Below the pieces are notes generated by a model. That model was given only the letters and a program-made list of their open reading frames with translations, did no database searches and was not told the DNA's origin. A program made the position numbers and the translations under genes. Of a stretch of DNA of 64,000 bases, positions 3,704 to 60,025 are shown piece after piece. Origin of the DNA: Deltaproteobacteria bacterium (GTDB lineage: Bacteria; BMS3Abin14); contig JAADHJ010000044.1 of NCBI GenBank assembly GCA_013151915.1, positions 67,029 through 131,028 on the forward strand, in the 5' to 3' direction. Numbering within the stretch: the stretch's first letter is position 1; every line of letters begins with the position of its first letter.

Positions 3704-4300
3704 TTAGTCCTTTGGATAAAACTTTGATACAGTATCTCCAACCTCTTCAAGCCATCGGCTCCGTTGTTCAATTGTGCTTATTATAACCATTTTAAACATC
3801 TTTCGATGGAATCGTGTAACTCCGCAAAGACCAAATATGCAATTCTTCCATATAGTTTCTAAAGGATCACCAAAAACCTTCTCCTCTCTTTCAGGTAAAG
3901 TATTGGATGTATTGAATACAATAGCTGATTGTGCTTTCAATAATCCTTTTGGTACCCCTTCGCCCTCGTCGCCTTCTTGAAATTCGTATGCAACTCCAGG
4001 ACGAATTACTCTATCCATCCATCCTTTCAAGATTGCGGGCGGCTGACCCCACCAGTTTGGATGAACTATTATAATTCCATCAGAATCTTTCAATTCATTA
4101 CAATACTTCTCTATATACGGATGAATATCTGCATCTCTTTCCATCTCATTTGCAGGAAGAATTGGATCAAAACTTTCTTCATATAAATCATGAAAAAATA
4201 TATGATGGCCTTGCGATATAAGTGTCCTTAATGCAATATCGGCAATTGCGTGATTGAAGCTATTGCTGTCTGGATGCGCAAGTATTATTGATAATTTCAT
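3704..4300 (-). CDS. Flavodoxin-like fold NAD(P)H dehydrogenase (quinone) / Flavodoxin_2 family
   Basis: The N-terminus MKLSIILAHPDSNSFNHAIAD and overall length and pattern are typical of MdaB/KefF-like FMN reductases. The gene is AT-rich, like its neighbour. Confidence 0.65.
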   Translation of the reverse strand: MKLSIILAHPDSNSFNHAIADIALRTLISQGHHIFFHDLYEESFDPILPANEMERDADIHPYIEKYCNELKDSDGIIIVHPNWWGQPPAILKGWMDRVIRPGVAYEFQEGDEGEGVPKGLLKAQSAIVFNTSNTLPEREEKVFGDPLETIWKNCIFGLCGVTRFHRKMFKMVIISTIEQRSRWLEEVGDTVSKFYPKD

Positions 4301-11414: not shown

Positions 11415-11454
11415 TATTATCTTCCTTCTCTTGTTTGGATCATACTGGAAATGG

Positions 11455-11512
11455 GTGCCTGGAACCCGACGTCCAAAGTTCAACGTTCAAGGTTCAACGT
11501 TCAAGGTTCAAC
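11455..11512 (+). repeat. GTTCAA-hexamer repeat element, copy A1 (CCTGGAACCCGACGTCCAAAGTTCAACGTTCAAGGTTCAACGTTCAAGGTTCAACC)
   Basis: Direct repeats of GTTCAAC/GTTCAAG. A related element occurs at 12964..13010 and in the MITE-like insert at 22840..23073. Confidence 0.6.
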
Positions 11513-11609
11513 CACCACCCGTTCGCGGTGAGCCGCTCCTTAACCCGATAAGGTACGCATTACCCGGAGGACCTCATGCTTTCAATTGTCAATGATCAGA
11601 TTCATGCAC

Positions 11610-12878
11610 TTATTTGTGCGACAATTCAAAAGAAAACTGCTTCTCGTAAAACTCTCTTGCAGCATTTTGTTTGTCAGCTACGTAGGAATAAATTTCTTCA
11701 TAATTCTCGAAAAGCAGGTTGACGATTCTGGTATCCAGAAGGCGATTATCAGAAAGCTGTTTAAGGATTTGAACTACACCGTCTTTGGACATACCTTTTC
11801 TATATGGTCGATCTTCAGTCAGTGCGGTAAATATATCTGCAACCATCATAATTCGCGCCCCTGTGCTCAGGTCGGCTGCCGTGCAGTGAAAAGGATATCC
11901 TGATCCATCAGGTCTTTCATGGTGATAAGCGGCCCATTCGGCAATCTGCTTAAGACCTCCGATGGTATTAATCACAGAATAGGTATAGTAGGTGTGTGAT
12001 TTCATAACCGCCATCTCTTCTTTTGTAAGTTTCCCGGGTTTATCCAGAATGCTGTTAGGAATCGCCAGTTTACCTATATCATGCAAATTCCCTGCAACCT
12101 CCATAAGCCCTATTTCTGTTGCCGTCAGGCCAAAAACTTTTGATAGCATAGAGGCAGACGCGGCAACACCTGAAGAATGTGTTGAAGTAAAACGAGAACG
12201 GAAATCAATTATATTCCGAAAAAGCTCCGATATTAAGGATATATCCGAAAAGTCTATTTCTGTTTTTCTGAAAGGTCCTTCGTTAAGGAGAAAAGAATAT
12301 AACCTGGGAGAAACCAGGTCCAACCAGAATTCTTCGCGATTAGAGATCGCCAGGAAAAGATCTATAGCCTGAGAATGAAAAAGAGAACCAGACAAAGCTT
12401 CTATTTCAAGGATAATATTTTCATGCTGATGAAGAATATAATGATCTCGTTTTATTTCACGCTCAAGATGATCGGCAAGAAATAATAATTGTGAATCGAA
12501 AACAAGAGGAGTTTCAATTGATTCTTTCCAATTTTGCCATTCGTTGTGATGACATCTGATTATTTTTGACGACTCCTTTAACCACGGTATGTTACTGAAC
12601 AAAATTTCACCGCGTATGCAATGACCTTCGGTGTTTTCGACTTCAGAATTTCGAAGGGAGATTTTTTCCTCCAATGAAAGAGCGCCGATATCATGGAGCA
12701 ATGCAGCTATGAAAATATTTTCCAATCTTTCATTTGTGAGACCTGCCGCTTTCCCCATTTCCCACACAACAAATGCCGTCCTTTGTTGATGTTGAATTAA
12801 TGAAGGATCGGCCAAATCCATGGCATCGGAGAGTGAAAGGATAAGATTGCCTAAATTGACTGTAATTTGACGCTGCAT
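11610..12878 (-). CDS. HD-GYP domain c-di-GMP phosphodiesterase-type protein (N-terminal degenerate HD + C-terminal HD-GYP)
   Basis: Motifs LHDIGAL, LHDIGKLAIP and HHERPDGSGYP are present. The gene is low-GC (about 40%) and flanked by direct GTTCAA repeats. Confidence 0.75.
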   Translation of the reverse strand: MQRQITVNLGNLILSLSDAMDLADPSLIQHQQRTAFVVWEMGKAAGLTNERLENIFIAALLHDIGALSLEEKISLRNSEVENTEGHCIRGEILFSNIPWLKESSKIIRCHHNEWQNWKESIETPLVFDSQLLFLADHLEREIKRDHYILHQHENIILEIEALSGSLFHSQAIDLFLAISNREEFWLDLVSPRLYSFLLNEGPFRKTEIDFSDISLISELFRNIIDFRSRFTSTHSSGVAASASMLSKVFGLTATEIGLMEVAGNLHDIGKLAIPNSILDKPGKLTKEEMAVMKSHTYYTYSVINTIGGLKQIAEWAAYHHERPDGSGYPFHCTAADLSTGARIMMVADIFTALTEDRPYRKGMSKDGVVQILKQLSDNRLLDTRIVNLLFENYEEIYSYVADKQNAAREFYEKQFSFELSHK

Positions 12879-12963
12879 ATCGTTTCCCCCAAATTATTTC
12901 AGCTGACCAGCTACGACTTCGTAAAAAAGATATTCTTCCAACTATTTGAAAATATGGTTTATC

Positions 12964-13010
12964 CTGGAACCCAACGTTCAAAGTTCAAATAACAACGTTC
13001 AAAGTTCAAC
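12964..13010 (+). repeat. GTTCAA-hexamer repeat element, copy A2 (CCTGGAACCCAACGTTCAAAGTTCAAATAACAACGTTCAAAGTTCAACAGG)
   Basis: Same orientation and 5' end as copy A1. It is followed at 13040..13090 by an approximately 80%-identical remnant of the 3' end of the ICMT gene. Confidence 0.6.
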
Positions 13011-19527: not shown

Positions 19528-19610
19528 GACTCTGGACCCTTCGACAGGCTCAGGGCAGGCTCTGGACTCTGGACTCAGGACACTGGACTCTGGACTTCAG
19601 GTTCCGTACC
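19528..19610. repeat. CTGGACT heptamer tract plus GGTTCCG...CGGAACC hairpin, copy D1
   Basis: Reads ctggact ctggact caggaca ctggact ctggact then GGTTCCGtacccCGGAACC. It lies exactly at the break of homology with the paralog 1 locus. Confidence 0.5.
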
Positions 19611-19623
19611 CCGGAACCTGAAC

Positions 19624-20490
19624 CTACCCTCCGAAGACCACCGTTTTCCCATTGTGGATCAGCACTCTGTTTTCAACGTGCATTCCAACCGCCCTGGCCA
19701 GCACCATCTTCTCGATGTCCAGGCCTTTCCTCTTCAGCGTGATCACGCTGTCGCGGTGGGTCACAGGGACAACGTCCTGAAAGATGATGGGACCTTGGTC
19801 CAGCTTCTCGGTAATGTAGTGGCTCGTAGCGCCGATGATCTTGACCCCCCGCATGAATGCCTGCCTGTAGGGATCGGCCCCGACAAAGGCGGGAAGGAAG
19901 GAGTGGTGAATATTGATGATACTGTTGCGGTAGCCGTTGACGAACTTGGATGACAGGATCTGCATGTACCGCGCGAGGACGATGGTATCGATATTTTCTT
20001 TCCTGAGAAGCTCCATCACCTGTTGTTCCTGATCCTTTTTATTGTCCTTCGTGACCGGGAAGCAGTGGAATGGAACGTGGTAGTATCCGGCGATGTCCCT
20101 CTGGTCCTCGTGGTTGCTGATGATGCAGGGGATATCCACCTGGAGGTGGCCGCTCCGCCACCTGTACAGGAGATCAAGGAGGCAATGGCCCTGCCTGGAG
20201 ACCATGATGGCTATCCGTTGTTTCCGGTCTGAGAAGAAAAGTCTGTGGGCCATTCCCAGACGCCAACAGACCTTGCTGAACTCATCATCCAGGTCCTCCC
20301 GCGGGATCTCGAAGCCGTCCATGTCCCAGCGGATCCTCATGAAGAACATGCTCTCCACGGGATCGGTGTGCTGGTCGAGGTAGACGATGTTCCCGCCGTG
20401 ATCGAAGATCCAGTTGGTAATTGTGGCGATGATCCCCTTTGTATCCTTACCCTGGATCAGCGCGGTTACTATGGGGGCCTTGTCACCCAT
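19624..20490 (-). CDS. purU: Formyltetrahydrofolate deformylase
   Basis: N-terminal ACT domain plus formyltransferase core (HHSFLPAF, SHYITE.LD.GPII motifs). The start is taken at ATG 20488-90 (GGGGA ribosome-binding site) rather than TTG 20496. Confidence 0.85.
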   Translation of the reverse strand: MGDKAPIVTALIQGKDTKGIIATITNWIFDHGGNIVYLDQHTDPVESMFFMRIRWDMDGFEIPREDLDDEFSKVCWRLGMAHRLFFSDRKQRIAIMVSRQGHCLLDLLYRWRSGHLQVDIPCIISNHEDQRDIAGYYHVPFHCFPVTKDNKKDQEQQVMELLRKENIDTIVLARYMQILSSKFVNGYRNSIINIHHSFLPAFVGADPYRQAFMRGVKIIGATSHYITEKLDQGPIIFQDVVPVTHRDSVITLKRKGLDIEKMVLARAVGMHVENRVLIHNGKTVVFGG

Positions 20491-20513
20491 GCTCAATCAT
20501 CCCCTTTACTGTT

Positions 20514-20693
20514 GGTAGGGTCGTAAAAAGTCCATGAATGGCTTTTTACTCCACGGAAAGCGAAAAGTGTCATTTTCACTTTCCTTACAAATCAACAACC
20601 TGTCCCGTAAATCGATGACCTGCGGGACAAGTCATTGATTTGGGCGCCCCTTAATGGGCGCGATGATGATTTCTTACGAAGTCATCATCTTTA
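20514..20693 (+). repeat. 180-bp multi-hairpin intergenic repeat, unit B copy 1
   Basis: Five consecutive imperfect palindromes: AAAAAGTCCAT/ATGGCTTTTT, GGAAAG..CTTTCC, CAAATCAACAACCTGTCCCG..CGGGACAAGTCATTGATTTG, GCGCCC..GGGCGC and GATGA...TCATC. It is tandem with copy 2. Confidence 0.7.
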
Positions 20694-20880
20694 GGTAGGG
20701 TCGTAAAAAGTCCGTTAATGGCCTTTTTTCTCAACGGAAAGCGAAAAGTGTCATTTTCACTTTCCTCACAAATCAAGAACCTGTCCCGCAAATCGATGAC
20801 CTGCGGGACAAGTCATTGATTTGGGCGCCCCTTAGCGGGCGCATTGATGACTTTTTACCAAGTCATACGAAGTCATCAAT
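20694..20880 (+). repeat. 180-bp multi-hairpin intergenic repeat, unit B copy 2 (about 90% identical to copy 1)
   Basis: Direct tandem duplicate of 20514..20693. It ends in GTTGATGACTTTTTACC..AAGTCATCAAT. Confidence 0.7.
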
Positions 20881-21072
20881 ATTCATTGTAATGAATATTC
20901 GTTGTCGATGCTGGATGATATTATAACGTGCTGTATTTTAAAGAAAAGATAATAAAGGTCAACATGTATTAGGGCTGAGACTTCCACCCTCTTCATTATT
21001 CCTCTCGACTGTGCTAATTTTCTTCCTTTCGGATCAACCTGAAACAGATATTACGTGCGGAGGAAAGCTCCC

Positions 21073-21363
21073 GTGAAAATTACCCCCGAGCTGGTGGAAC
21101 ACGTGGCCGACCTGGCCCGCCTGAAACTGTCCGGCGATGAACAGAAGAGGATGGAGATCCAACTGGGTGACATCCTTGCCTATATCGGTCTTCTGGACGA
21201 ACTGGACACGTCCGGTGTTTCCCCGACCTCCCACGTCATCGAGGTATTCAATGTCTTTCGGGATGACGAGGTGAGGCCGTCTTTTCCGGTGGAAAAGAGT
21301 CTGGCCAACGCTCCAGATAGATCCGGCACCGCCTTTAAAGTCCCGCGAATCATTGAAGACTAG
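21073..21363 (+). CDS. gatC: Asp/Glu-tRNA amidotransferase subunit C
   Basis: Typical GatC start ([21 protein letters not shown]) and length. The GTG start has a GGAGGAAAG ribosome-binding site. The ORF-track start at 21055 probably over-extends it. Confidence 0.8.
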
Positions 21364-21376
21364 GAAAAAGAGCCCC

Positions 21377-22834
21377 ATGAAACTTTACAGCAAGACCATA
21401 CATGAGCTGCATGAGGAAATGAAAGAGGGCCGCCTCACCTCAACGCAGATTACAAAGAGTGTTTTTTCCCGCATTGCCGAGGTGGACGACCGGATCGGTG
21501 CCTATCTGACCCTCACTGAGGAGTCGGCCATGGAAGCGGCGGAGAGGGCTGACGGCCGGTTTGGCAAAGGTGATTTTCTGGGCCCTCTGGATGGAATACC
21601 CATAGGATTAAAGGATATCTTCCTTACCGAGGGGGTCAGGACAACCTGCGGCTCGAAAATTCTGGAAAACTTCATCTCACCCTATGATGGGACAGTGGTT
21701 GCGCGGCTTAAACAGGCCGGCGCAGTGATTTCCGGCAAACTCAATATGGACGAGTTTGCCATGGGATCGTCCAGCGAGAATTCCGGGTTCTTCCCGGTTC
21801 ACAACCCGTGGAATATCGGCCGGGTTCCGGGAGGGTCATCGGGCGGGTCCGCCGCCTCCATCGCCGCGGGCGAGGCCATCGGTGCGCTGGGAACCGACAC
21901 GGGAGGCTCCATCCGTCAGCCCGCTTCGCACTGCGGCGTCGTGGGCATGAAGCCTACCTATGGCAGGGTGAGCCGCTATGGGGTCATCGCTTTCGCCTCG
22001 TCCCTAGACCAGGTCGGCCCCTTGGCAAAGGACGTTACCGATTGCGCTATTCTCCTGAAGGCCATCGCCGGTCATGATCCGGCCGACTCCACATCCGCGA
22101 AGCTCCATGTCCCTGACTATCCCTCCCTTCTCACAGGGGATGTTGAAGGTATGAAGGTGGGAATTCCGGATGAATATTTCGGGGAGGGGCTTGACCCTGG
22201 AGTAGAGGACCTGGTCCAGAAGGCGGCGGCGGCCCTTGAAGACAGGGGGATGGAACTTGTTCCTGTCACGCTTCCCAGCACTCGTTACGCGGTGGCCACA
22301 TACTACATCATCGCCCCGGCGGAGGCGTCATCTAATCTCGCGCGCTATGATGGGGTCCGCTTCGGTGCCCGTTATCCCGATGCCGGGGGACTCATGGAGA
22401 TGTACAAGGAAACCCGCAGCAGGGGATTCGGGCCCGAGGTGAAGCGCCGGATCATGCTCGGCACCTTCGCCCTGTCGTCCGGGTATTACGATGCCTACTA
22501 CGGGAAGGCTCAGAGGGTTCGCACCATGATTCGCAGAGAGATGGATGAGGCGTTTTCAAAGGTGGACGTGCTTCTCTCTCCCACCGCCCCGACACCGGCG
22601 TTTCCCATCGGGGATAAGATCGACGATCCCCTGAAAATGTACCTTTCGGATATTTTTACGATCCCGGTGAATATCGCCGGGGTTGCCGCTCTGTCGTTGC
22701 CCTGCGGCCTGTCGGTGGATGGCATGCCTGTGGGTGTGCAGCTCACCTCCCCCGCCTTCAAGGAGGAGGTCCTGCTCAATGTGGCCTTCGCCTACGAAAA
22801 GGAGAGAGGAAAGTTCCCGGAGTGCCCATTGTAA
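21377..22834 (+). CDS. gatA: Asp/Glu-tRNA amidotransferase subunit A (amidase signature)
   Basis: Amidase signature [14 protein letters not shown] and a GatA-type N-terminus. The ATG at 21377 lies just after the gatC stop. Confidence 0.9.
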
Positions 22835-22839
22835 ATACG

Positions 22840-23073
22840 TTCCACGTTCAAGGTTTAACGCCCAACGGGGAAAGCACCTTCAACGTTCAACAATGATAGG
22901 GTCGCAAAAAGTCCATTTATGGCTTTTTGCTCTACCCATCAGTGGGCGCATTGATGACTTTTTGCGATGGTGTCAACCATTGAACTCTTGAACCTTTGAA
23001 CCATTGAACCTTTGAACCATTGAACTCTTGAACCATTGAACTCTTGAACCATTGAACCTTGAACGTGGAACTC
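22840..23073. mobile_element. MITE-like element with about 20-bp terminal inverted repeats (TTCCACGTTCAAGGTT / AACCTTGAACGTGGAA)
   Basis: Perfect terminal inverted repeats lie at 22840-22859 and 23054-23073. The interior carries GTTCAA hexamer arrays (about 14 copies) and a deletion derivative of unit B (GGGTCGCAAAAAGTCCATTTATGGCTTTTTGC...GGGCGCATTGATGACTTTTTGCGATGGTGTCAACC). It is inserted between gatA and gatB. Confidence 0.6.
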
Positions 23074-23110
23074 GAAATCTGATTCAGAGACTGTTGCGGA
23101 GAGAAAAACA

Positions 23111-24544
23111 ATGGACTACGAAGCGGTTATAGGGCTGGAGATTCACGCCCAGCTTAAAACGAATACCAAAATCTTCTGCGGCTGCAGTACCAGGTTTGGC
23201 GAGAAACCCAACGCCAACACCTGCCCGGTGTGCCTTGGAATGCCCGGCGTCCTGCCGGTTCTCAACCGCAAGGTGGTGGAATATGCCATCATGATGGGGC
23301 TGGCTACGCACTGCCGCATCGCGGAAGAGAGCGTATTCGCCCGGAAGAACTACTTCTATCCGGACCTGCCCAAGGGGTACCAGATCAGCCAGTATGAACA
23401 CCCATTGTGCGAGAAGGGGTGGGTCGATATCAGCACCAACGGCGAGTCCAGACGGATAGGGATTACCCGGATTCACATGGAAGAGGATGCCGGCAAGCTT
23501 GTACACGAGGGAGCCATGGGGTCGGCTTCGTTCAGCCTGGTTGACCTGAACAGATCCTGCGTCCCCCTGATCGAGATTGTCAGCGAACCGGACATCCGAT
23601 CCCCCGAGGAGGCCAGGGGATACGTTCAGGCCCTCCGGGACATCGTGGTCTACCTGGGCATATGTGATGGAAATATGGAGGAAGGCTCTCTTCGGTGCGA
23701 CGCCAACATCTCCATCAGGCCCAGGGGATCGGATACCTTTGGCACAAGGGCTGAGATCAAGAACATGAACTCCTTCCGGTTTCTCCATGCCGCCCTTGAA
23801 TACGAGATCGAACGGCAGATCGAAATCGTGGAAAACGGCGGTCATGTTGTCCAGGAGACCCGCCTTTTTGACTCCACCAGAGGGATGACGTCCTCCATGA
23901 GAGGTAAGGAGGATGCCCACGATTATCGATATTTCCCGGAGCCCGACCTGGTCCCGATCAAAATCGATGAGGACTGGATCAAGAATGCCGAGGGAGCCAT
24001 GCCCGAGTTGAGGGCCGCCAAGATGAAAAGGTTTGCGGCGGAACTGGGGCTTCCCGAATACGACGCCGAGGTCCTGACTTCGGATCCTGAGGTCGCCGCG
24101 TTCTTCGAATCCGTGGTGAACGCCGGCGCCGGGGCCAAGGCAGCCAGCAACTGGATTATGGGTGAGTTCATGCGTCTTGCCAAGGACAGCGGGGTCGGGG
24201 CTGCTCGCGTCACTCCCGCTCAGATGGCTCGCATTATCACCCTGGTGGAGACTCAGACCATATCAGGGTCCGCGGCGAAGGCGGTCTTCGAGGAGGTGTT
24301 CACTACGGGCGGTGACCCTGACAGGATCGTGGATGAACGGGGACTCGCCCAGGTTTCAGAGGACGGCGCCATCAGGGGTGAGGTCCGGAAGGTCCTTGAG
24401 GCCTACCCGGCCGAGGTGGAACAATTCAGGGCCGGCAAGGATAAGGTTCTCGGCTTCTTCGTGGGTCAGGTCATGAGGGCGATGAAGGGTAAGGCGAATC
24501 CCAAAATTGTCAACGAGATATTAAGGGAATTACTGTCGGAATAG
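23111..24544 (+). CDS. gatB: Asp/Glu-tRNA amidotransferase subunit B
   Basis: Canonical GatB N-terminus ([23 protein letters not shown]) and a C-terminal YqeY-like tail. Confidence 0.9.
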
Positions 24545-24608
24545 AAGCGCTTCTGACGTCCCTGACGGGGCGTGTATGGGAGTAGGGGAGCATGGGAGTA
24601 TCGATGTA

Positions 24609-24648
24609 TTCTGGACTCTGGACCTTGGACTCTGGACTTTGGGTTCCG
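24609..24648. repeat. CTGGACT heptamer tract, copy D2
   Basis: Reads ctggact ctggacc ttggact ctggact ttgGGTTCCGgcatCGGAAAC. It has the same composition as 19528..19610. Confidence 0.5.
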
Positions 24649-59294: not shown

Positions 59295-59347
59295 CCTCCC
59301 TGAAACATTGTTGAGCGGTGATAAACCACGAAAAGCTCCATTATTGA

Positions 59348-59506
59348 TATGGTCGTAAAAAGTCCATTAATGGCTTTTTACTTTACGGAAAGCGAAAAGT
59401 GTCATTTTCACTTTCCTCACAAATCAACAACTTGAACTTGCGCTGCAAGTCATTGATTTGCGCGCCCCGGAAGTGGGCGCGTTGACGACTTCGTAAAAAG
59501 TCATCA
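59348..59506 (+). repeat. 180-bp multi-hairpin repeat, unit B copy 3, immediately 5' of ppdK
   Basis: Matches copies 1 and 2 except that the central hairpin is replaced by a shorter one with compensatory changes (CAAATCAACAACTTG..CAAGTCATTGATTTG). It ends in the repeat-C palindrome. Confidence 0.7.
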
Positions 59507-60025
59507 ACATTGAATCGGAAATTAAAACCATCGATAAGGAGGAAAAAACATCGATATCCGGTACAATTTATCAGCCAAATGATGGCCCGTCAATGGGGTT
59601 TACCTCTTTCTGAGCACCAGTTTATCCAGGAGAAAAACGCCCCCTGTAATCAGGTAAATCAGGATTATTCTCATGACAGAGTTCTTCATCCCGTAGGTGA
59701 GTCCAAAGCCAAGCAGGAGCCCTATAAAGATCGAAACATTTTTGCGCCTTTTGTTGGGAAACCATTCCACTCTTTTCATTGTTGAGATCCCATCCTTTCC
59801 CTGGACTTTCCTTTCGATTCAATCCGTTTTCGCCATCCGGCCGGATGCCTTGTCAGGTTGTAACTTCCTGCGTGCGGTGAGGTCAAGCCCCATCGACGGG
59901 CCCGGATCATTCCGCGGCAAATCCGCCTCCAGGAAGGATAATACCACTGGAAATACCCCCCCAACACTTCCTTTTGAACCGGGAAAGTAGTAAAATTTCA
60001 GGCAAATTGGAAGGGACCTGAGACA

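Follow-up and report, generated by a model that had tools for sequence, protein, structure and literature searches.

The window analysed here, a 64,000-nt stretch of contig JAADHJ010000044.1 (assembly GCA_013151915.1) from a bacterium of the BMS3Abin14 lineage, carries the genes gatC, gatA and gatB on its plus strand, and the subject of this study is the 276-nt spacer that separates gatA from gatB. All three genes were recognized as NCBIfam equivalogs and, together with purU (minus strand, 19624-20496), mtnA and glnE, scored well above the respective cut-offs. The spacer is occupied by mirrored arrays of short tandem units enclosing a fragment of a second repeat, unit B, of which full-length copies lie elsewhere in the window (Table 1). 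The original prediction had interpreted this arrangement as a miniature inverted-repeat transposable element (MITE) that was inserted into gatCAB and split it; the inverted ends, the hexamer arrays and the unit B fragment between gatA and gatB were all confirmed in the sequence, and the comparisons described below point to a different account of how they came to lie there.

The outer boundaries of the structure are formed by a 20-nt inverted repeat (left arm, GTTCCACGTTCAAGGTTTAA; right arm, TTGAACCTTGAACGTGGAAC). The terminal inverted repeats of this length that had been predicted do exist, but the match is imperfect, with 19 of the 20 positions complementary, and the last base of the right arm is 23071 instead of 23073. 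Likewise, the structure adjoins gatA as described, the left arm beginning 4 nt downstream of the stop codon (22832-22834; 5 nt by the earlier coordinate), whereas the ATG of gatB (23111) follows the right arm by 39 nt and not by 37. The 16-mer core of the arms, TTCCACGTTCAAGGTT, matched the window exactly at the two arms only; with up to three mismatches allowed, five matches were obtained against 0.47 expected, the remaining three being located inside a GTTCAA array at 11479-11508. The spacer held 13 exact hexamers (GTTCAA on the plus strand, n=2; TTGAAC, n=11) and four further variants with one mismatch; the hexamers, which had been estimated at about 14, are closely spaced, but at 8 nt in nine cases and 7 nt in one instead of the 8-11 bp reported before. 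By units, the left side comprises five of GTTCAAN type and the right side 11 TTGAACNN octamers with two heptamers. The truncated copy of unit B was also borne out, since the segment between the two arrays matches both ends of the 181-bp repeat present as a tandem pair upstream of gatC and as a third copy further downstream; it has inverted ends of its own (22902-22913 and 22956-22967; 12 nt, 12/12 matching).

When the 241-nt stretch containing these elements was folded in the sense orientation, a free energy of −77.1 kcal/mol was obtained (z = −5.6), none of 200 shuffled sequences was equally stable, and the centroid structure retained the 20-bp outer stem; the inverted-repeat and array structure is therefore more than would arise by chance. 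No target-site duplication was found, as the flanks of the outer unit (AAATAC on the left and TCGAAAT on the right) contain no direct repeat. Two open reading frames (ORFs) that run across the spacer (22683-22991, plus strand; 22932-23111, minus strand) were regarded as artefacts of repeats that contain no stop codon.

Table 1 Features of the gat region and related repeats, with positions in the window
Feature	Position	Strand	Details
gatC (21073-21363) and gatA (21377-22834)	21073..22834	+	TIGR00135, 79 bits; TIGR00132, 617 bits
Left arm, outer inverted repeat	22839..22858	+	Heptamers GTTCCAC GTTCAAG GTTTAA(C); first 11 nt same in BMS3Abin14
Linker, non-repeat, 19 nt	22859..22877	+	Small CCC-aacg-GGG hairpin (sequence, fold)
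Second block of left-arm units, CTTCAAC GTTCAAC	22878..22891	+	Sequence and inverted-repeat match
Unit B copy, internally deleted	22892..22979	+	Keeps lead-in AATGAT-AGGGTCG, H1, degenerate H4 and H5; lacks H2 and H3
Right-arm tandem array, TTGAACNN	22975..23064	+	Tandem Repeats Finder: period 8, 11.4 copies; 16-nt super-period; overlaps 3' end of unit B
Right arm, outer inverted repeat	23052..23071	+	TTGAACC TTGAACG TGGAAC; GAACCTTGAAC common to BMS3Abin14
gatB leader	23072..23110	+	GGAGAG ribosome-binding site, 23098-23103; CGGAGA core kept in BMS3Abin14
gatB	23111..24544	+	NF004014, 732 bits
Unit B, two tandem full copies, purU-gatC spacer	20514..20875	+	Period 181, score 599
Unit B, third full copy in the window	59345..59510	+	Sequence match to the repeat
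Arrays ATGGGAGN x3 then TCTGGAC x5, gatB-mtnA spacer	24576..24642	+	Same repeat class; small GGTTCCG...CGGAAAC hairpin follows
CTCTGGA heptamer array (x5) just past the purU stop	19560..19596	+	Same class; then GGTTCCG...CGGAACC (flank to 19623)
GTTCAAN heptamer array	11458..11512	+	Within the window, most closely related to the left arm

The same site was compared among relatives. The nearest of these, bacterium BMS3Abin14 (87% GatB identity), has the same gene order and a gatA-gatB spacer of 113 nt, 163 nt shorter than that of the window; it starts with an identical TAAATACGTTCCACGTT, continues with (GTTGGAC)x3 and (CTCTGGA)x4, ends with TGGAACCTTGAACGG and is free of unit B. The outermost 11-14 nt were common to both spacers on either side (TAAATACGTTCCACGTT on the left, GAACCTTGAAC on the right), whereas the interiors differed. 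Because both outer ends occur in BMS3Abin14, which lacks the interior, they are not the boundaries of an insertion. Among the more distant clade members compared (GatB identity 70-76%), which are denoted here by locus numbers, the spacer contained (ATCCAAA)x4 ... (TTGGATN)x4 in L006, (ATTCCAG/A)x5 ... (TTGGAAT-type)x4 in L008, (CTCAGTT)x3 in L005, (ATTTCAG)x4 ... (CTGAAAT-type)x3 in L204 and (TCTAACG)x4 in L205; L206 had a 251-nt GC-rich inverted repeat with no arrays, and the spacer of Geobacter sulfurreducens (L207) was only 17 nt long. Array-bearing spacers of 66-276 nt were thus present at the gatA-gatB site in seven of eight clade lineages, with an onset about 4-8 nt past the gatA stop codon, and the arrays were mirrored in most of them. 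Since the units differed from lineage to lineage, the array-bearing spacer is a trait of the clade in which the sequence itself is not conserved. The comparison of this interval between relatives, which had been suggested as an empty-site test, accordingly yielded no precise empty site: BMS3Abin14 has both outer ends, and seven of the eight lineages are filled with arrays. L006 and L008 are about 97% identical over 9.4 kb and yet have gatA-gatB spacers that could not be aligned; their other spacers differed mainly by array indels.

Arrays of this kind form a genome-wide class. About 120 of them were detected in 542 kb of clade DNA, approximately one per 4.6 kb, compared with a single array in shuffled DNA. 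A period of 7 nt dominated the histogram of periods 4-15 (99 of 136), followed by 14 nt (n=15), 8 nt (n=7) and 9 nt (n=6). An inverted partner within 250 bp, matching at 11 or more of 12 positions, accompanied 39 of the 120 arrays, against an expectation of about 2-3. The arrays were mostly intergenic, with a median distance of 44-67 nt to gene 3' ends and of 77-105 nt to 5' ends under a crude ORF model, and every gat-operon spacer of L005, L006 and L008 bore such repeats. Dozens of differing units coexisted within the same genomes (for example AGGCTAT, GGTGATT, AACTAAC, GGGGAGA and ACACGGAG), and an RTYCMRN theme ran through many clade units (GTTCAAG, GTTCCAC, ATTCCAG, ATCCAAA and GTCCAGA). 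Furthermore, a 17-mer taken from the core of the arms, GTTCCACGTTCAAGGTT, gave more than 120 listed matches in Joint Genome Institute (JGI) metagenomes of many kinds, in at least 116 distinct contexts. Among the 116 contexts listed, 76 contained at least two further in-register units, and at least two T[TG]GAAC units followed within 170 nt downstream in 42 and upstream in none; the listed matches always lay in GTTCNAN heptamer arrays and never formed pairs of arms about 200 nt apart. As GTTCCACGTTCAAGGTT recurs in arrays of such diverse metagenomes, the supposed terminal inverted repeat is a commonplace segment of GTTCNAN array hairpins with a cosmopolitan distribution, and not an end private to one element. 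The same class also occupies the gatB-mtnA spacer of L006 and L008, where (GGGGAGA)n is mirrored by (CTCCCAN)n.

Comparison of orthologous loci showed how such arrays change. They were identical in four contigs of BMS3Abin14 type; a difference of one unit separated the orthologous metagenome loci L125/L188 from L136/L181; the loop and the right arm differed between the orthologous loci L133 and L159; and the gatB-mtnA spacer was expanded by 16 nt in L008 relative to L006. A further copy of any spacer loop was not found in about 200 loci. Given these differences between orthologs and the missing loop copies, change in place with occasional wholesale replacement fits better than a dispersed family of elements.

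Unit B behaves differently. Its consensus, of about 165 nt, folds into five hairpins, and nine of the 48 base pairs show compensatory changes; in about 80 aligned copies, seen in 3-4 genomes of the clade, the lead-in (TCAAT-N-TTGATAG followed by GGTCG) and the end (GAAGTCATCAA) were conserved. The terminal inverted repeats of the consensus, TTGATAGGGTCGTAAAAAGTC and GACTTCTTGCGAAGTCATCAA (TTGAT...ATCAA), match at about 15 of 21 positions. Scanning the genome collection with the 5' motif of unit B returned 75 stretches, or 73 after the removal of two chance matches, nearly all from three metagenome-assembled genomes (MAGs; CSMAG_1715, SZUA-178 and N04_metabat2_bin.36); many copies were at contig ends, and unit B is therefore probably one reason for the short contigs of these MAGs. 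At the purU-gatC site the window is filled, with about 385 extra bp that include the two tandem unit B copies, and BMS3Abin14 is empty. Some copies are flanked by direct repeats of 5-11 nt that are specific to the copy and not constant in length (L035, L033, L044 and, with CAATC, L006). Unit B is also modular: the copy in L081 and the fragment in the gatA-gatB spacer share the form H1+H4+H5, and L006 carries at 283-327 a mini-copy in the form of a 45-bp perfect hairpin, GAGGAGCAAAAAGTCCCGTCTGGACTTTTTGCGACGCTGTCAATC, between CAATC direct repeats, which is missing from L008 and seems to represent the minimal mobile version of unit B, reduced to its two ends. No Rfam match was obtained for unit B, which is apparently an undescribed MITE-like family of five hairpins. 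Correia, ERIC, RUP, BOX and REP/BIME sequences are familiar bacterial MITEs or mosaic repeats; unit B resembles them in its small size, non-coding sequence, multiple copies, imperfect terminal inverted repeats and filled and empty sites, and its variable combinations of hairpin modules recall the BOX A-B-C and BIME mosaics.

By all appearances, unit B is mobile and independent of the arrays. Only three of the 80 copies touched an array, which is about the chance level; a preference of unit B for arrays as insertion sites was rejected on this count, and its nesting within the gatA-gatB array is accordingly a coincidence of two abundant repeat classes. Insertion elements of the ISDra2 type target TTGAT, and the IS200/IS605-type mechanism makes no flanking direct repeats. 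Mobilization of unit B by such an element was suggested by its 5' TTGAT and is counted against by the flanking direct repeats of some copies. Directly 3' of the tandem pair in the window, an AT-rich palindrome, AATATTCATTGTAATGAATATT (20876-20900), was noted, which is missing in BMS3Abin14 and forms part of the ~385-bp insertion.

Our preferred reading, to which we assign a probability of about 0.65, is that the gatA-gatB spacer combines two independent classes of non-coding repeats that turn over in place, rather than being one transposable unit. Its outer part would be a local case of the mostly heptameric and often mirrored arrays that fill many intergenic gaps of the BMS3Abin14-like lineage, and its centre a copy of unit B, decayed and with an internal deletion, that landed inside or beside the loop. 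The array-bearing spacer is old; the whole clade has it and Geobacter does not, and we infer that units, copy numbers and loop change fast in place through replication slippage, template switching between the hairpin arms and occasional wholesale replacement. The transcript, or single-stranded DNA, could form the 20-bp outer stem; any effect of the spacer on expression would be secondary and is unproven, and the spacer probably serves no dedicated function.

The proposal that the gatA-gatB unit is one non-autonomous transposable element, either a MITE or a foldback-like element with inverted ends of tandem repeats, appears highly improbable by comparison. It can call on the 20-nt inverted repeat that bounds a 233-bp non-coding unit, on the greater length of the spacer relative to BMS3Abin14, and on the cassette-like character of the wholesale spacer swap between L006 and L008 and of the exchange of the loop and one arm between L133 and L159. 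A search for further copies with the same inverted repeats, as had been proposed, nevertheless found none in the window or in 83 loci (about 480 kb of them clade DNA), where even a 14-mer of the arm was unmatched; in addition, there is no target-site duplication, the outer ends were already present in BMS3Abin14 around another interior, no spacer loop recurs in about 200 loci, the ends consist of units typical of a generic array class, the two arms differ greatly in size (about 5 and 13 units), and the interior holds a fragment of another family. In its missing duplication, its ancestral ends and the lack of other copies in the DNA searched, the outer 233-bp unit departs from MITEs, and the claim that such an element was inserted and split gatCAB is not upheld; a mobile element is present as the nested unit B fragment and not as the outer unit. 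Eukaryotic Foldback elements are dispersed, multi-copy transposons that generate target-site duplications and have inverted ends made of short tandem repeats. The gatA-gatB unit shares with them the long inverted ends of short tandem units around a non-repeat middle, but differs in being a single copy in the DNA searched, at a site occupied throughout the history of the clade.

Several observations weigh against the composite reading. The persistence of an array at one site down to 70% GatB identity, combined with the repeated use of RTYCMRN-like units, could mean a selected function. The 8-nt period of the main array is atypical: 7 of about 136 arrays in the class have it. The spacer was replaced in full between L006 and L008 (97% identical), and this resembles a discrete event, such as cassette exchange or recombination, more than gradual slippage. 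The copy search covered the window and the 83 loci, and a private family with this inverted repeat could exist in the rest of the source genome. Finally, co-transcription of the spacer is argued from the missing consensus promoter, in a host whose promoters are uncharacterized.

Signals of expression were examined at the same locus. A promoter scan found no sigma-70-like promoter on the plus strand of the spacer, counts being equal to those of shuffled sequences, and no T-run that would make the outer stem an intrinsic terminator follows it, the next bases being CTCGAAATCTG. The sole terminator-like site of the spacer is a weak stem of eight pairs inside unit B (22937-22956), and such sites were no commoner than in shuffles. 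Rfam searches gave no match at gathering score in the whole window, none at E-values up to 5 in 20300-23300 and none on the array hairpins of 15 other loci, and no transfer RNA or transfer-messenger RNA was found. From the lack of a promoter-like site and of a T-run we infer that transcription reads through, in agreement with one of the two alternatives named before, the co-transcription of gatB through the structure as opposed to a promoter of its own inside it; most likely, the whole 276-nt spacer is transcribed within the gatCAB mRNA, and gatB is translated from its own GGAGAG site before the ATG.

Against this background, the mirrored arrays might be selected as an RNA stem-loop in the gatCAB transcript, acting as a barrier to 3' exonucleases, as an RNase III or RNase E site or as a partial terminator that sets the ratio of GatA to GatB. 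The strong sense fold of the window element and its persistent outer stem are in keeping with such a role, as are the spacers of L005 and L006, whose folds are more stable than those of their shuffles (z = −3.0 and −2.8, respectively), the onset of the arrays close to the gatA stop codon in seven lineages, the greater proximity of the whole class to gene 3' ends than to 5' ends, likewise reported for Xanthomonas, and an architecture that lasts while the sequence changes. However, the spacers of L001 (BMS3Abin14) and L008 fold no better than shuffles (z = +0.8 and −0.9), the antisense fold of the window element is about as good (z = −4.5), and the G-U strand signature is missing: of 34 inverted pairs flanked by co-directional genes, 15 gave the better fold on the sense strand and 19 on the antisense strand (Wilcoxon P = 0.37), which gives no sign of selection on one transcript strand. 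Moreover, two thirds of the arrays have no inverted partner, the outer stem has no T-run after it, and no Rfam family was recognized. GatCAB is a 1:1:1 enzyme, so an imbalance between GatA and GatB has no obvious use. We consider this role unlikely, and it could coexist with a mutational origin of the arrays.

A binding function at the DNA level, in which the GTTCAA/TTGAAC arrays are read as contiguous heptads by an iteron-like, nucleoid-associated or ribbon-helix-helix protein, seems quite improbable. Eleven contiguous, regularly spaced identical hexamers, the RTYCMRN theme across clade units and the recurrence of GTTCNAN units in very diverse metagenomes would suit it, the missing strand bias fits a role as double-stranded DNA, and by analogy it may draw on a binding role hypothesized for similar repeat pairs (Aklujkar et al. 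2009, PMC2700814). The arrays cannot be accounted for by a single reader protein, however, since dozens of unrelated units coexist in the same genomes; orthologous sites exchange units freely, neighbouring sites spaced by 7 or 8 bp face different sides of the helix, and the operon is essential and has no regulator gene nearby. The initial idea of an iteron or response-regulator array likewise loses weight, since the arrays are members of a class with dozens of different units and about one array per 4.6 kb. A sponge of GGA motifs for a CsrA-type protein, brought to mind by the CTCTGGA and TTGGAC units of relatives, was dropped, as the window arrays contain no GGA motif. As for the persistence of the site, the mirrored arrays might be a selected architecture, held at fixed intercistronic sites through the history of the phylum with both arms rewritten in concert, or, in a variant of this view, replaced as whole cassettes by a new, transposase-independent route; we regard this as possible but rather unlikely. 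If it were true, the recurrence of GTTCNAN would point to a widespread partner or process acting on DNA of 7-nt periodicity, such as a nucleoid or ribbon-helix-helix-type binder, a structure-specific nuclease or a repair pathway.

Comparable repeats are known from other bacteria, the heptamers GGGGAYT of Nostoc and Anabaena being the cyanobacterial short tandemly repeated repetitive (STRR) sequences. A literature search for the repeat sequences themselves found none. In Xanthomonas, arrays of the heptamer GGGAATC occur as 70-75 inverted pairs near the upstream ORF, with a gene context kept between species and a varying length, and are transcribed with unknown function (Rehm et al. 2015, PMC4692102). 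The arrays at gatA-gatB and elsewhere in the clade resemble them as 7-nt intergenic units in opposite-strand pairs able to form a stem-loop, located near the stop codon of the upstream ORF in the same gene context with varying length and sequence. They differ in units that are not G-rich and have no quadruplex potential, in the many units per genome, in the nested second repeat, in a host from the BMS3Abin14-like candidate phylum and, for the main gatA-gatB array, in the 8-nt period, the left arm and the last two right units being of 7 nt. In Geobacter metallireducens, paired octa- or heptanucleotide repeats on opposite strands fall into classes 1-3 (GTTGCTYN, TCTCCGTS and MTYCTGA); one pair lies between proB and proA, and the repeats were guessed to be binding sites of IHF/HU type and termed 'putative global regulator binding sites' (PMC2700814). 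With these, the arrays described here share tandem runs of 3-5 units of 7-9 nt on opposite strands at variable distance, positions inside operons, an 8-nt period and absence from the same site in sister species. The G. metallireducens repeats have, on the other hand, other unit sequences and a fixed, BLAST-defined consensus in many copies of one genome, whereas each site here has its own units; protein binding was a hypothesis for the G. metallireducens repeats. Judged on these features, the gatA-gatB arrays belong to the published Xanthomonas/Geobacter type, and they depart from it in the units, the 8-nt period, the host lineage and the nested unit B fragment.

These results reveal that a poorly known candidate phylum, the BMS3Abin14-like lineage, is rich in heptamer arrays, and they sharpen the question of why intergenic 7-nt arrays, often mirrored, hold their positions in Xanthomonas, Geobacter, cyanobacteria and the BMS3Abin14-like lineage despite the turnover of their sequence. 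The gatA-gatB junction, with seven array-bearing lineages and an outgroup, offers a clean and comparable series for weighing neutral turnover against selected structure. For annotation, recognizing the spacer for what it is averts a false MITE call together with a false account of a split operon, since a long gatA-gatB spacer is normal for this lineage.

Further observations were made at and around these loci. In L006 and L008, thiC sits between gatC and gatA, and a thiamine pyrophosphate (TPP) riboswitch (RF00059, about 60 bits) was found upstream of gatC (L006:372-470; L008:389-487); gatC, and possibly also gatA and gatB, would there lie downstream of a thiamine riboswitch. The gat loci of the window and of BMS3Abin14 have neither thiC nor the TPP riboswitch. 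Elsewhere in the window, a direct repeat of 47 nt with 83% identity, containing GTTCAAN arrays (11444-11518 and 12963-13009), flanks a gene for an HD-GYP/HDOD protein (11610-12878, minus strand); a transposase between the array copies at 11458 and 12963 was ruled out, as the ORF is that of the HD-GYP/HDOD protein. In BMS3Abin14, part of the lead-in of the left repeat copy, CTGGAAATGGGTGCCTGGA, occurs on the opposite side of the orthologous gene (L001, about position 1128), a placement that hints at rearrangement between arrays. In L056, two paralogous ORFs of about 34 amino acids (VKKEITREARKREADYWAVQKRALRDTPVKACRK and a variant; about 1940-1990 and 4200-4250, minus strand) each begin immediately downstream of a truncated unit B 5' module.

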